A DNA stretch of 49,302 bases from Chiloscyllium plagiosum (lineage: Eukaryota), in NCBI RefSeq assembly GCF_004010195.1, contig NC_057719.1, positions 7,426,254-7,475,555 of the forward strand, given 5' to 3'. The notes beneath the pieces are model-generated. The model had not been told where the DNA came from, searched no databases, and saw only the letters and a list, made by a program, of their open reading frames with translations. Below, one piece after another: positions 22,886-49,302 of this stretch; the first letter of the stretch is position 1, and each line of letters starts with the position of its first letter. The position numbers and the translations under genes are program-made.

Positions 22886-22993
22886 GAGAAAGTGAGGACT
22901 GCAGATGCTGATGAAGGGCTTATGCCCGAAACATAACGCTCCTGCTCCTCGGATGCTGCCTGACCAGTTGTGCTTTTCCAGCAACACAGTCTT
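22886..22993 (+). mobile_element. Penelope mini-insertion
   Basis: 15-bp TSD tgatagtggaatttg (22871-22885, 22994-23008); contains ctgatga-agggc-ttat-gccc-gaaac. Confidence 0.85.
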
Positions 22994-27354: not shown

Positions 27355-27620
27355 GTAAGTGCAAATTAATCTGGATTTTTAAGAGACCATTTTTTATTAT
27401 ATCTGCTATACTCCACTGTGTACACCACTAAAATGCCATATGCAATTATGGAGGTTCACTTTTTTTTAAGAAATAAATACGTATGCTTTTCTCATGCATA
27501 TTGAACTTGACCAAAGAAGGGTAGATTTTTGTCTGGACGTAAAGGTACAAATATAATTTATGAAAGGAATAAATCATAAAATATGGCCGCAGTCAGAAAA
27601 TTCATTTAGTAATCCTGAGA

Positions 27621-27826
27621 CAAACACAAGAATGTGCAGAAATTCATAACTCTGGCAGTATCTATGGAGAGAGAGAAACAGAGTTGACATTAACAGAATT
27701 GAGTTCTGTTAACATTAACTCTGTTTTCTCTCCAAAGATGCTGCAAGATCTGCTGAGTTTTTCCAGCATTCCCTTTGTTTGTGTCAGATTTCCTGCATCT
27801 GCAGTATTTTGTTTTTATTAGAGTGT
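27621..27826. mobile_element. Older palindromic PLE-terminus-like element
   Basis: Inverted arms (ggagagagagaaacagagttgac / ttaactctgttttctctcc); 11-bp direct repeat taatcctgaga at both flanks. Confidence 0.65.
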
Positions 27827-30715: not shown

Positions 30716-31646
30716 AGTTTTCCAGTTATCTCATACTTCTCCAGACTTCAAGGATTTTTAGACCAATGCATCTACTATCTCTGTAGCTACCATGTTTAGG
30801 ATCCCAGGTGGCAAGCATAACAGCTGGGGACTTATTTGTCTTTAGCCCCATTAGTTTGTTGAATACTAATTCTCTACTGATAGTGATGGTACTTAATTAT
30901 TTATTCTTTAGTATTGATGGGAGATTGTAATATGTGTCTCAGCTGCCTTCAGTCATACCTCAAGCAGACGCTGCTGCTCTCCCTTCTGTTGTTTCTGGTT
31001 GGCAGAGTATGAAATAATTATGCCTCTAGCATAGGCCTTAGGGGTCTCCCAAAGAATGGATGGATTATTAGCTGTACTTGAGTTGGTGGCCAAAAAAGCT
31101 TCTAATTCCCTAGAGAAGTATTCTACAAACTTGCTGTCCTTGAGGATGAAGGGATCTGTTTGCCAGTACTGAGAGTCCATTGCATCACCCTTAATCTTAA
31201 CTATTAAATACACCACTGCATGATCAGAGATGGCAATATTCCCAATCGAACAGGATACCACCAAATCTAAAAAAGCCGTGGGAGGTAAGAAATAATTAAT
31301 CCTTGTGTGGCGTTTATGAGGATTGGAAAAGAACATAAAATCTCTGCTAGTAGGGTGTAAACGTCTCCAAACTTCTACCAACCCTAATTCCACACATAAA
31401 TCAACTAAATGCTTAGCTTATGAAGAAAGCTTTAGGGGGTCTTTGAGCATTCATCCAGCACAGGATCCACCAGGCAATTAAAGCCCCCCCCTCCATAATA
31501 ATATGCCGCGACGCCAAGGCCATCTGCTTAGATAGTGCATCAGTCATAAATTTAAGAGGGTGAGCTGGAAGACAAAAGACATTCAAAATACCATATTCCT
31601 TGCCATGTATAAGGGCCTTTAGAGTAACAAACATACTCATCTTTAA

Positions 31647-31693
31647 AGAGAAAATGCTGCCTGACCTGCTGCGCTTCTCCAGCAACATATTTC
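31647..31693 (+). mobile_element. 47-bp Penelope micro-insertion
   Basis: Perfect 15-bp TSD catactcatctttaa (31632-31646, 31694-31708). Confidence 0.85.
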
Positions 31694-32250
31694 CATACTC
31701 ATCTTTAACACAATCTATTCTGGACGGGTATTGCCAATCCCCTGTTCCTAGTACTAAAAGACAAGAAAAATACCCAATCAAACCCCAACCTGCTGCAACT
31801 TCAAGTGTTCCTTGTCATTAAGATGAGCCTCCTGCAACACAGCAACATCCGCCCTCTCCTTTCCAAGGCTCGATAATACCTTTTTTCTTTTAACTGATGA
31901 ATAAATCCCTCTGACATTCCAGGTGTACCATTTAAGAATGCTACTAACCATGATCCTTCACAATCACTTTTTGACCTGCTGAGAGCAAACATTTGTCTTG
32001 CGACATGCTGAGCATATTCAGAAGGAGACTCATAGAGTATATTTACAAAAAAACCCAAAAAAATAAACTAACTACAAAACACAAAAGGCACTTAATGGGG
32101 GGCTGTACCTCCTGCCCATAGAGGGCGCTTACATTTCCCACACAAACCTCCATCCCCCCTTCCAGCTTGAGCCTCACCCCAAACCCAAGCAATGGAAGAA
32201 ACCAAACAAAGGACACTGAAGGCACAAAGGAATAACAAAAACAGTGAGCA

Positions 32251-32454: not shown

Positions 32455-32731
32455 GTTGTTGTGGTTCTGTTCGCCGAGCTGGAAATTTTTGTTGCAAACG
32501 TTTCGTCCCCTGTCTAGGTGACATCCTCAGTGCTTGGGAGCCTCCTGTGAAGCGCTTCTGTGGTGTTTCCTCCGGCATTTATAGTGGCCTGTCCCTGCCG
32601 CTTCCGGTTGTCAGTTTCAACTGTCCGCTGTAGTGGCCGGTATATTGGGTCCAGGTCGATGTGTTTGTTGATGGAGTTTGTGGATGAGTGCCATGCTTCT
32701 AGGAATTCCCTGGCTGTTCTGTGTTTGGCTT
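32455..32731 (-). mobile_element. Penelope-like element 3' end (GIY-YIG C-terminus), runs into the gap
   Basis: AKHRTAREFLEAWHSSTNSINKHIDLDPIY followed by an HHR motif. Confidence 0.85.
32494..32533 (-). ncRNA. Minimal hammerhead ribozyme motif
   Basis: GCA-CTGAGGA-TGTCACCTAGACAGGGGAC-GAA-ACGT-T-TGC: stem I GCA/TGC, CUGANGA and GAAA cores, palindromic ACGU stem III. Confidence 0.7.
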
Positions 32732-35110: not shown

Positions 35111-35688
35111 TGTAAATTTTATTAATGAGGTTAATGGGTTGGGGAAAACTTGCTGAATTGCATGTTTTGTTGCTTTACTTGTAAAGTTGAAAGTTACTGC
35201 AGCATCAATTTATTTTCCTAACTACTGCCTCAACCTACTTCTCTACTTTTTAGTTCAAAATATTTGTTCATTTGAACCTGTGCATGTTTAAGGTTGCTGA
35301 CGCATGATTAAAACAATCATTGTATTTTCATTTCATGTGCAGACTCGTTATCCTTGTAGAGGTATGTTATTACTTATCTGAAAGTTTGCACCTGGCAAAT
35401 GCAAGGAGTACTGGGATATGTACTTGTGGTTGCAACCTTCCACCACTTGGATTACATCCCTTAAAACTATCCATGCGGGCTTTGAGTGTTAATTCATGGC
35501 ACTGAATTATCTGAGTCTGCAGTTAATAAGTTATCTGTATTGTTGCAAATCTTTTACCATCTGCCTTTTATGAGGTTGAAGCTGAGTGCACTTTCAAGGA
35601 AATATTATGTTAGTATTACTAACCTTACTTTATCACTGCATATGTCTTTAATAAAGTCCATGCACCACTCAGCTGCTTTTACACCTAG

Positions 35689-36369
35689 GTGAAAGTAAGG
35701 ACTGCAGATGCTGGAGATCAGAGTCGAGAATAGAGTGGTGCTGGAAAAGCACAGCAGGTCAGGCAGCATCCGAGGAGCAGGAAAATCGATGTTTTGGGCA
35801 GGAGCCCTTCATCAGGAATGAGGCTGGGAGTCTCCGGGGTGGAGAGATAAATGGGAGGGGGGGTGGGGCTGGGGAGAAGGTAGCTAAGAGTGGAAATGGA
35901 GGAGGCCTGTGCCGAAGACATGTAGGTCCTGGGCCTCCTCCATCGCCACTCCCTCAACACCTGACTCCTGGAGGAAGAACGCCTCATCTTCCGCCTCGGA
36001 GCACTACAACCCCAGGGCATCAATGTGGACTTCATCAGTTTCCTCATTTCCCCTCTCCCCACCTTATCCCAGTTCCAACCTGTGAGCTCAGCACCATCCT
36101 CATGACCTGTCCTACCTGCCAATCTTCTTTCCCACCTATCCACTCCACCCTCCTCTCCGATCTATCACCTTTATCCCCACCTCCATCCAGCTATTGTACT
36201 CTTAGCTACCTTCTCCCCAGCCCCACTTCCCCCCTCCTATTTATTTCTCCACCCCAGAGGCTCCCAGCCTCATTCCTGATGAAGGGCTCCTGCCCGAAAT
36301 GTCGATTTTCCTGCTCCTCGGATGCTCTCTGACCTGCTGTGCTGTTCCAGCACCACTCTAATCTTGACT
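35689..36369 (+). mobile_element. Penelope element, 5'-truncated with inverted pLTR
   Basis: GIY-YIG C-terminus LEEERLIFRLGALQPQGINVDF; ~170-bp inverted arms; 16-bp TSD ctgcttttacacctag; HHR core at 36276-36305. Confidence 0.9.
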
Positions 36370-40644: not shown

Positions 40645-40930
40645 GAGCTTTTGGGGGCTAAAGGGATCAAAGGGTATGGAGAGAAATCAGAAACAGGGTA
40701 TTGAGTTGGATGATCAGCCACGATCATATTGAATGATGCAATGGGCTCAAAAGGCCATGATTTGGAGATGCTGGTGTTGGACTGGGGTGTACAAAGTTAA
40801 AAATCACACAACTCCAGGTTATCAGGTTATAATCCAACAGGTTTAATTGGAAGCACTAGCTTTCGGAGCACCGCTCCTTCATCAGGCTCCTTCAAAGGCC
40901 AAGTGGCCTACTCCTGTTCCTGTTTCTTAT
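40645..40930 (+). mobile_element. CR1 tail interrupted by a third-family PLE fragment (40758-40893)
   Basis: Direct repeat aaaggcca flanks the insert, which carries an HHR on the - strand. Confidence 0.75.
40856..40886 (-). ncRNA. Minimal hammerhead ribozyme motif
   Basis: C-CTGATGA-A-GGAGC-GGT-GCTCC-GAA-AGCT-A-G; palindromic AGCU stem III. Confidence 0.65.
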
Positions 40931-41725: not shown

Positions 41726-42628
41726 TGTGATAATGCTGTGGTTGTAAGAGGTTATTTGGTCTTTTTTTGTTTGAGGAGAGGTTGTAAGGCAGCAGCGTTG
41801 AGCAGTCTGGGATAAGGTAAACAACTTGGGAGGCCTCTGTTTTTTTTAATAGCCTGAATGGGTGTGATCAGCTCTCACAGATGAGGAATCTGGGTTTTAG
41901 TTTTTCAGTAGTATCAAAAGCTGCTGGGTTCTCAACTGATTTGGAGGCTTCAGTGAAAGTCCCCTAGCTGCTTGTCTTTCTGAATTTTCTCTTGATGGTT
42001 TTACCTCCTGGATTGGAGAACTGCATGTGAGAACCTGACTCTGAATTTGCCTTTTTTGCCAAGGGGTGTGTTTATGGGATTGTTACTGTATTGTAATAGC
42101 GAAAACAAAAGACACTAACACCCACCACTCACCACTTTTGAGTCCAATAATCCTAAACCCCAACTGGAATCAAAGATTAGTAATTTTACTGGATCTATTA
42201 TTCAGTTAAATTTTCCAATAGAGTTAAGCTATTCTAAATTCCTCTTTCTTTTGTTTGTACTTTAACTATAGTACTTAAATAAATTGTTTTTGCTTAATGT
42301 CGAGTAGGTTGACCAGTCGCATTGCATCTGGAACATGGCACTTCACATTTGCCTTTAAAATAAGAAAAAGTTAGGGTCTGGGCTACCTCCTTAAAATATT
42401 TTGAGGGGGATCTGGTCTGGTCATAATTGGGGGATCTTTTTGGGATCAAAATCTTTGATTCCAGTTGGGGTTTAGGATTATTGGACTCAAAAGTGGTGAG
42501 TGGTGGGTGTTAGTGTCTTTTGTTTTCGCTATTGAATTCAGTTGGTTTAAATAGAAACTCTTTCAGTCACTAAGAGTTTCCTGGGGTAAAAGAAGTCACT
42601 GCAGGAGGTTTACAGAAAGTAGGCAAGG

Positions 42629-42820
42629 AGAAAGTGAGACTGCAGATGCTGAAGATCAGAGCTGAAAATGTGTTGCTGGAAAAGCGCAGCAGGTCAGGCA
42701 GCATCAAAGGAGCAGGAGAATCGACGTTTCGGGCATGAGCCCTTCTTCAGGCCCGAAACGTCGATTCTCCTGCTCCTTGGATGCTGCCTGACCTGCTGCG
42801 CTTTTCCAGCAACACATTTT
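42629..42820. mobile_element. Young Penelope fold-back insertion
   Basis: 16-bp TSD cagaaagtaggcaagg; 73-bp arms with 1 mismatch; intact - strand HHR ctgaaga-agggc-tcat-gccc-gaaacgtcga at 42721-42751. Confidence 0.9.
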
Positions 42821-48310: not shown

Positions 48311-48566
48311 CACTGCATGGTGTTGTGGCTGGTCGTTTGTCGATGCCCACGTGTATGAATGGAGGAAGAGGAGGATGGGTATACATAGAGCATGCAAGGA
48401 TATGGTGGTGAAGCCAGAGTTGGATGAATACCTAGTTGGATGAAAACTGCTGCCTCCAGGCAACCGCTCTGACTTTCATATCAGGAATAGGTATCATTTA
48501 GTTTCTTGGAGAAGGAGAAGAGTATTGGAATTGTATAGAAAGTTGGGCAAATAATGAGATCTTCTA

Positions 48567-49302
48567 GAAGAAAGTGAGGACTGCAGATGCTGGAGATCAG
48601 AGAGACACATTTCCAGCAACACATTTTCACCTATGCTGCCTGACCTGCTGCACTTTTCCAGCAACACATTTTCACCTATGCTGCCTGACCTGCTGCGATT
48701 TTCCAGCAACACATTTTCAGCGGCTGCCTGACCTGCTGCGATTTTCCAGCAATACATTTTCAGCTTGCTGTCTGACCTGCTCCGCTGTTCCAGCAATACA
48801 TTTTCAGCTATGCTGCCTGACCTGTTGCGCTTTTCCAGCAACACATTTTCACCTGTGCTGCCTGACCTGCTGCGCTTTTCCAGCAACACATTTTCACCTG
48901 TGCTGCCTGACCTGTTGCGCTTTTCCAGCAACACATTTTCACCTGTGCTGCCTGACCTGCTGTGCTTTTCCAGCAATACATTTTCAGCTATGCTGCCTGA
49001 CCTGCTGGGCTATTCCACCAACACATTTTCAGCTCCTTGGATGCTGCCTGACCTGCTGCGCTTTTCCAGCAATACATTTTCAGCTATGCTGCCTGACCTG
49101 CTGCGCTTTTCCAGCAATACATTTTCAACTTGCTGCCTGACCTGTTGCGCTTTTCCAGCAATACATTTTCAGCTATGCTGCCTGACCTGCTGCGCTTTTC
49201 CAGCAACACATTTTCAGCTCCTTGGATGCTGCCTGACCTGCTGTGCTTTTCCAGCAATACATTTTCAGCTATGCTGCCTGACCTGCTGCGCTTTTCCAGC
49301 AA
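48567..49302 (+). repeat. Penelope-terminus-derived minisatellite (~45-bp unit, about 15 copies, runs off the window)
   Basis: Unit ctatgctgcctgacctgctgcgcttttccagcaacacattttcag, preceded by the inverted PLE end agaaagtgaggactgcagatgctggagatcagag. Confidence 0.92.

Follow-up and report, generated by a model that had tools for sequence, protein, structure and literature searches.

The right-hand end of the 49,302-nt stretch of Chiloscyllium plagiosum DNA that we analysed (the window) carries an array of short repeats at 48610-49302, built of 14 complete head-to-tail units (48630-49267, + strand) and two partial ones. The first unit (48610-48629, +), recognised by TRF and by BLAST-level sequence comparison, is 5'-truncated to 20 nt of arm end, and the last (49268-49302, +), delimited by sequence comparison, ends with the window, so that the length of the array is a lower bound. 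TRF gave a period of 45, 15.2 copies and 88% matches over 48610-49302, with a second period of 185, in agreement with the original prediction of about 15 head-to-tail copies of the end of a Penelope arm. Self-identity, taken as the best 90-nt value at periods of 43-51, was 0.98 in the array, as against 0.51 elsewhere in the window and no more than 0.51 in any of 20 shuffles. The complete units measure 45 bp (nine of 14), 51 bp (two), 44 bp (two) and 43 bp (one); 45 bp had thus been rightly named as a main length, whereas 51 bp, named alongside it, belongs to a minority. All 14 differ from one another, and the common 3' end foreseen for them is present at 15 of 15 unit ends, which read CATTTTCA followed by GCT, CCT, ACT or GC.

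On its left, the locus starts with a 34-nt Penelope tail (48569-48602, -), inverted relative to the array and matched by BLAST at seven other places in the window. The predicted start was right in its sequence and in its likeness to the fold-back insertions of the window, and wrong in its position, 48567, since the sequence quoted for it begins at 48569. No left arm follows the tail: a 2-nt spacer with a 9-nt arm-end stub (48603-48613, +), read from the sequence and covered from 48606 onwards by a contig of run X15, and the truncated first unit adjoin it directly, the 11-nt stub and the 20-nt unit overlapping by 4 nt. The stub fits a 15-nt period on a TTTTC microhomology, one T short. Before the tail lies the flank expected to hold the left TSD copy (48549-48568), given TSDs of 14-16 bp at five closed fold-backs, with a boundary uncertain by a few nucleotides. 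The right end of the array and the expected right TSD partner lie beyond the window, and the best match to the left-flank copy inside the array was 10 of 16. A pattern scan of both strands of the array found no hammerhead core, and the five weak microRNA-family matches returned by Rfam for the window all score below the gathering score, with none in the array. Open reading frames across the array were set aside as genes, being translations of the repeat. In our reading, the array is a minisatellite that is non-coding and shows no sign of a function. CTAG precedes the tail both here (48564-48568) and at fold-back E (35685-35688), and in the three contig runs TAGG closes the loose-end consensus before 48569; these letters may reflect target preference or template-end extension.

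The five closed fold-backs in the window (C, D, E, F and G) carry TSDs that are exact in C, E and F and allow one mismatch in D and G. They have a tail on one side only, and, like the array units, the right arms of all five reach the tail boundary or end just short of it. The same 34-nt tail opens the array locus and the fold-backs alike, which upholds the predicted Penelope origin of the array. The reference fold-back of the same subfamily (42629-42820; tail, left arm and right arm, with a 16-bp TSD) has a right arm that ends at the same point as the array units; the majority unit core shows 0 of 40 differences from this arm, and the units diverge from it by 3.75% on average. Fold-back E (35689-36369), a longer member of a sister subfamily, has a hammerhead core, a decayed ORF end and a 16-bp TSD. 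The pattern CTGATGA-stem-GAAA occurs at 22908, 32319, 36276 and 43235, upstream of the unit sequence; Rfam found no hammerhead in the window, and these four cores are predicted by a regular expression. Minimal hammerhead motifs are known in the terminal repeats of Penelope-like elements (PLEs) (PMC4209133). The complete units, each corresponding to the terminal 43-51 nt of the sense arm, lie downstream of the motif and are without it. The family shows the traits of EN+ PLEs, namely a tail of 30-40 bp at one end only (34 nt at 48569-48602), inverted or partial-tandem terminal repeats (fold-backs C-G) and, by pattern in four copies, a minimal hammerhead core in the parent terminal repeat. In EN+ PLEs the tail is the stretch between two start sites of the reverse transcriptase (RT) (PMC11167929), and by analogy the end of the array unit would correspond to the inner one.

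Fold-back E retains a decayed ORF fragment of 72 aa, for which we obtained no Pfam match, no protein-atlas match and no named family. A phmmer search with the fragment gave 20 matches; among the ten scanned, none carried an RT or GIY-YIG family and two were Ig-repeat proteins. Among the phmmer matches listed, four share a motif with the fragment, one of them also with an RT-like stretch, and we take this to be a PLE motif. A template-boundary structure in the parent RNA is unsupported, since folding gave z scores of 0.61, 0.57 and -1.86 against shuffles in three copies and was no better than shuffles in two of them. At the unit start, GATGCTG is complementary to a stretch of the tail (42698-42705 with 42645-42651), with which it can pair. 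This 7-nt pairing is present in two of three parent folds and would enclose the unit and the inner start site; its arm side is invariant in four aligned copies and its tail side varies in two, and the case for it can be argued either way.

The array reaches the end of a window that holds N gaps, and its last 172 nt resemble an earlier block, as might be expected of an assembly artefact at a sequence end. We consider such an artefact very unlikely: none of the 14 units repeats another, exact internal matches extend to 62 nt at most, the repeated 172-nt block carries six differences, and a run from another study recovers the flank, the tail and the first junction. Reads and contigs of 4 of 24 runs were compared over 48320-48720, an interval that takes in the array no further than unit 2. 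Run X15, which bears the same organism label, yielded a flank-to-tail contig over 48320-48583 with 0 differences, and a contig over 48606-48660 that crosses the first junction with one difference at a depth of 26.8, as compared with 16.4 in the flank. Flank-to-tail contigs were found in three organisms (A, B and C), those of B and C extending into the tail by 19 and 11 nt. The insertion point is common to the three organisms, the contigs of B and C covering the flank and the start of the tail rather than the array. Since the flank contigs of the organisms differ by 8-12 substitutions and 8-12 gap letters in ~260 nt, there has been time for the array to grow. Around 48536-48537, organisms B and C have eight bases that the window lacks, probably owing to a small deletion in the lineage of the window.

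The relationships among the units separate two origins named in the original prediction, which were telomerase-like template jumping by the Penelope RT for the whole array and the later expansion of a minisatellite from a retroelement end. The 20 non-CpG substitutions in the units collapse to 11 distinct variants, with nine excess sharings among units as compared with 1.5-2.5 expected for independent copies (P<=3e-5, in a test that left out CpG transitions, the AACAC/AATAC site and the ambiguous junction of unit 3); with the AACAC/AATAC site included and the core only, the test gave P<=1.6e-4. Variants are also linked across junctions: AATAC accompanies short G-type junctions in 7/7 cases and AACAC other junction types in 8/8 (15 junctions; Fisher P=1.6e-4, with junction classes picked after inspection of the data). 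An A>G change is confined to the G>C class, at three adjacent junctions, and a one-base deletion to the AATAC class, while the 51-bp junction is parent-like on both sides, as seen by sequence comparison in unit 10 (49032-49082, +). Near the junctions, five characters form nested sets, none of their 10 pairs being incompatible (permutation P=0.0035); nesting of this kind had been named beforehand as evidence against RT reiteration. Neighbouring units share variants more than they do in shuffled orders (P=0.046 and 0.022), and the other 51-bp unit, unit 14 (49217-49267, +), which belongs to the repeated 172-nt block, lies 185 bp from unit 10, in keeping with the higher-order period of the array.

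The units are copies of copies and do not form a star phylogeny. Their tree is not clean, as characters conflict in 11 of 28 pairs in the ordinary unit phase and in 8 of 28 in the junction-centred phase with distal markers included, and conversion or recurrent mutation, which are usual in minisatellites (PMC3389668), must therefore be invoked. The mean distance between units is flat with separation (3.1 at lag 1 and 3.0-4.0 at other lags). Of 25,875 family reads, 3,691 (14%) carry AATAC, and a second template could supply this variant. The array has both head-to-tail units of 10-100 bp that match part of a transposable element and variants shared between units, two traits of TE-derived minisatellites, the second of which points to duplication or conversion after insertion.

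PLE RTs are the nearest relatives of telomerase RT (PMC8557442), and in a telomerase-like origin the RT would have made all or most units in one event on a template window of 45-51 nt. Such reiteration would account for the ending of every unit at the presumed inner start site and for the several junction types at one locus. It runs counter, however, to the shared derived variants and to their linkage across junctions: with each side of a junction supplied by a different RT pass, no linkage would be expected, whereas the linkage found implies that junctions were copied as DNA blocks. Moreover, the + strand of the array is hammerhead-sense, which at a right-hand end would be opposite to terminal addition from a sense template, an argument that assumes such a template when an antisense one has been raised (PMC3846280). 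The locus also starts with an inverted tail, like internal insertions and against terminal addition, there are no tandem telomere repeats in the window, and the portions of PMC11167929 on which we draw report no reiterative products. We therefore abandon telomerase-like template jumping for the whole array as extremely unlikely and retain the other predicted option, later expansion from a retroelement end, with which the shared and nested variants agree. Telomerase repeat addition yields repeats with a fixed template end. The array likewise consists of repeats with a fixed template end that derive from an element with a related RT (for the relationship, PMC8557442), but its units are copies of copies, its orientation is opposite to that of terminal addition and an inverted tail comes first.

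Another way for an RT to produce tandem units is the rolling-circle reverse transcription of a small circular RNA, as proposed for non-LTR retrozymes. Tandem PLE-derived retrozymes with monomers from 51 bp have been described in vertebrates, including one chondrichthyan (10.64898/2026.07.22.740005), and our array resembles them as a vertebrate tandem repeat made of PLE terminal sequence. Retrozymes have a type I hammerhead in every unit, however, whereas the array shows neither a hammerhead core nor an Rfam match on either strand. A circle yields one fixed junction, whereas the array has several, and the array was seen at a single locus. We regard this origin as extremely unlikely.

The TE-derived minisatellite at this locus has grown from the end of a Penelope-like insertion, and the sharing pattern among its units makes it very probable that growth took place after insertion. 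How the first repeat arose can be approached from the junctions. The 51-bp junction coincides, as predicted, with GCTC, a 4-nt microhomology that the parent has at period 51, but this is one of several microhomologies of 4-6 nt near the arm end (periods 13, 14, 15, 27, 38, 48 and 51). In an origin at the DNA level only, a fold-back would have slipped between two GCTC words to give a 51-bp duplication, a 6-bp deletion would have produced the 45-bp unit, and the array would have expanded and lost its palindromic centre later, the RT having made no tandem. A GCTC junction that is parent-like on both sides can indeed root the nested haplotypes, the microhomology and the incomplete terminal unit of the array fit the two published models of initiation, which invoke short flanking repeats and incomplete end units (PMC3389668, PMC6947457), and microhomology deletions are common in PLE copies (PMC3846280). 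Yet this sequence of events requires an extra deletion with its left end exactly at the tail boundary and its right end inside a unit, the published flanking repeats are of 5-10 bp as compared with 4 here (PMC3389668), and a solo TSD-flanked unit with the same 5' end is left unexplained. Given later expansion, we put a DNA-level seed at somewhat below even odds, and an origin at the DNA level throughout, though possible, lower still.

The solo unit is a 47-nt insertion (31647-31693, +) made of a 7-nt tail-like stub and one 40-nt arm end, flanked by a perfect 15-bp TSD (31632-31646 and 31694-31708). Its arm end starts at the same ATGCTG point as the 45-bp array unit. It is one of 14 arm copies outside the array in the window, and its upstream sequence matches the reference at 1 of 14 nt, as compared with 5-14 of 14 nt for the other 13. 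The insertion is independent of the array, and the support that it lends comes from a single case. It sits in what looks to us like a decayed LINE ORF region.

The left end of the array carries further information on the seed. Had slippage taken place in an ordinary arm, the first unit would be preceded by upstream arm sequence; the array locus keeps none of the arm sequence upstream of the start of the 51-bp unit, which favours a seed made by the RT. In the leftmost pieces of the array, arm ends truncated on the 5' side abut the tail exactly at its boundary. PLEs regularly form partial tandems that are led by a 5'-truncated copy (PMC8557442), and, judged by sequence, the leftmost pieces have this layout in miniature. 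The ending of the pieces at the presumed inner start site, the leftmost stub and the solo unit together favour one or two re-starts of the RT. Given later expansion, we therefore think that the seed was probably made by the RT, and a seed of one or two re-starts that formed a micro partial tandem and was expanded later has a slightly better than even chance.

We thus favour, with a probability of roughly 0.55, a two-step account in which a seed laid down at insertion was followed by ordinary repeat expansion to give a TE-derived minisatellite. In the first step, a Penelope-like element of the Poseidon type would nick both strands, and synthesis from the outer RT start site would give one of them nothing but the 34-nt tail. 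On the second strand, the RT would begin at the inner start site, copy ~45-51 nt, and re-start at this site once or twice, stopping after ~20 nt. The product would be a miniature partial tandem of <100 bp in the pLTR layout, with a truncated copy before a longer one. In the second step, this short direct repeat would misalign in replication, unequal exchange or gene conversion, and the array would reach at least 15 units while mutations accumulate and are copied along.

A more general proposal is that re-initiation at the inner start site is routine for the Penelope RT during a single insertion event, that the enzyme stops preferentially near ATGCTG, and that the resulting micro-tandems of 15-51 nt seed many independent minisatellites in the genomes of this lineage. 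We hold this to be doubtful, although it is hinted at by the stub-plus-unit anatomy, the solo insertion (31647-31693) and contigs in three organisms that imply junction periods of 37, 39 and 46 nt (from coordinates only, with an alignment to the array locus that selects for junctions in its register). Contigs in all three organisms place a tail and an arm end of ~20 nt at other sites, again by coordinates only, and strand-switch joints in reads lead from 48602 to unit ends. A 102-nt X15 contig aligned to 48578-48629, in which the end of the tail is joined to a short arm end, has a depth of 428.6 as compared with 16.4 in the unique flank and suggests a multi-copy mini-form of tail and stub.

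In run X19 the tail reached a depth of ~60,700 reads, as compared with 0-3 in unique flank bins, and by a rough estimate the genome holds ~10^5 copies of the element end. Junction-spanning reads in this run numbered at most ~295 among the matches listed, an upper bound of <0.5% of the tail depth. We therefore rejected a high-copy or major satellite, as the tandem junction is not amplified far above the dispersed copies. A few hundred junctions in the whole genome, whether at other loci or in an array longer than the part in the window, would still be compatible with the bound of ~295 reads. Pattern scans for the tandem junction in metagenome contigs, and for the unit core in metagenome, viral and prokaryote contigs, gave no match, a result without weight because DNA of this animal should be absent from such collections.

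The closest known parallels are the TE-derived minisatellites of Alu, B1 and MaLR origin, in which the unit is likewise a piece of a retroelement (PMC3389668, PMC6947457). There too, a single initiation, which the authors suggest may occur during retrotransposition, is followed by local duplication (PMC3389668), and an incomplete terminal unit and a short microhomology at one junction are found. Our case differs in its Penelope-like parent and in a unit that ends at a presumed RT start site instead of an internal hotspot. With EN+ PLE insertions (PMC11167929, PMC8557442, PMC3846280) the locus shares the inverted 34-nt tail, arms that end at the tail boundary, a truncated copy before a longer one and TSDs at the sister insertions, whereas its units are only 43-51 bp long, number at least 15 and are for the most part post-insertion copies. 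A literature search, mostly of titles and the beginnings of abstracts, found no description of a minisatellite that derives from the end of a PLE arm. PMC9977147 reports de novo PLE insertions of very short length and, in the portion on which we rely, makes no mention of tandem arrays from them, and non-autonomous Chlamys elements form multicopy head-to-tail insertions (PMC8557442).

As it stands, the array adds a further case to the transposon-derived minisatellites, its parent class being one in which our literature search found none described. A seed made by the RT would bear on two questions: the origin of TE-derived tandem repeats, most of which are unexplained (6% are explained; PMC3389668), and the formation of partial tandems by PLEs, which is described as undefined (PMC8557442). 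With ~10^5 copies of the element end, as roughly estimated, this genome would make both testable by junction counting. If the Penelope RT does re-initiate routinely, its micro-tandems would preserve in the genome the footprint of one or two rounds of repeat addition by the closest relative of telomerase, and would define a retrotransposition route to the birth of minisatellites.

Other parts of the window hold further traces of repeats. A second decayed ORF end at 32514-32731 (-), with a different hammerhead-like core at 32530 and no Pfam match, adjoins a gap of 500 N; from its motif, we presume that it probably belongs to another Penelope family. A hammerhead-core pattern with a different stem II at 40885 (-) suggests a further Penelope family. 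A hairpin-like insertion of an older related family lies at 27620-27781, with weak Rfam microRNA matches below their gathering scores. Finally, 42095-42178 and 42450-42533 form a perfect 84-nt inverted repeat with 271 nt between its arms.
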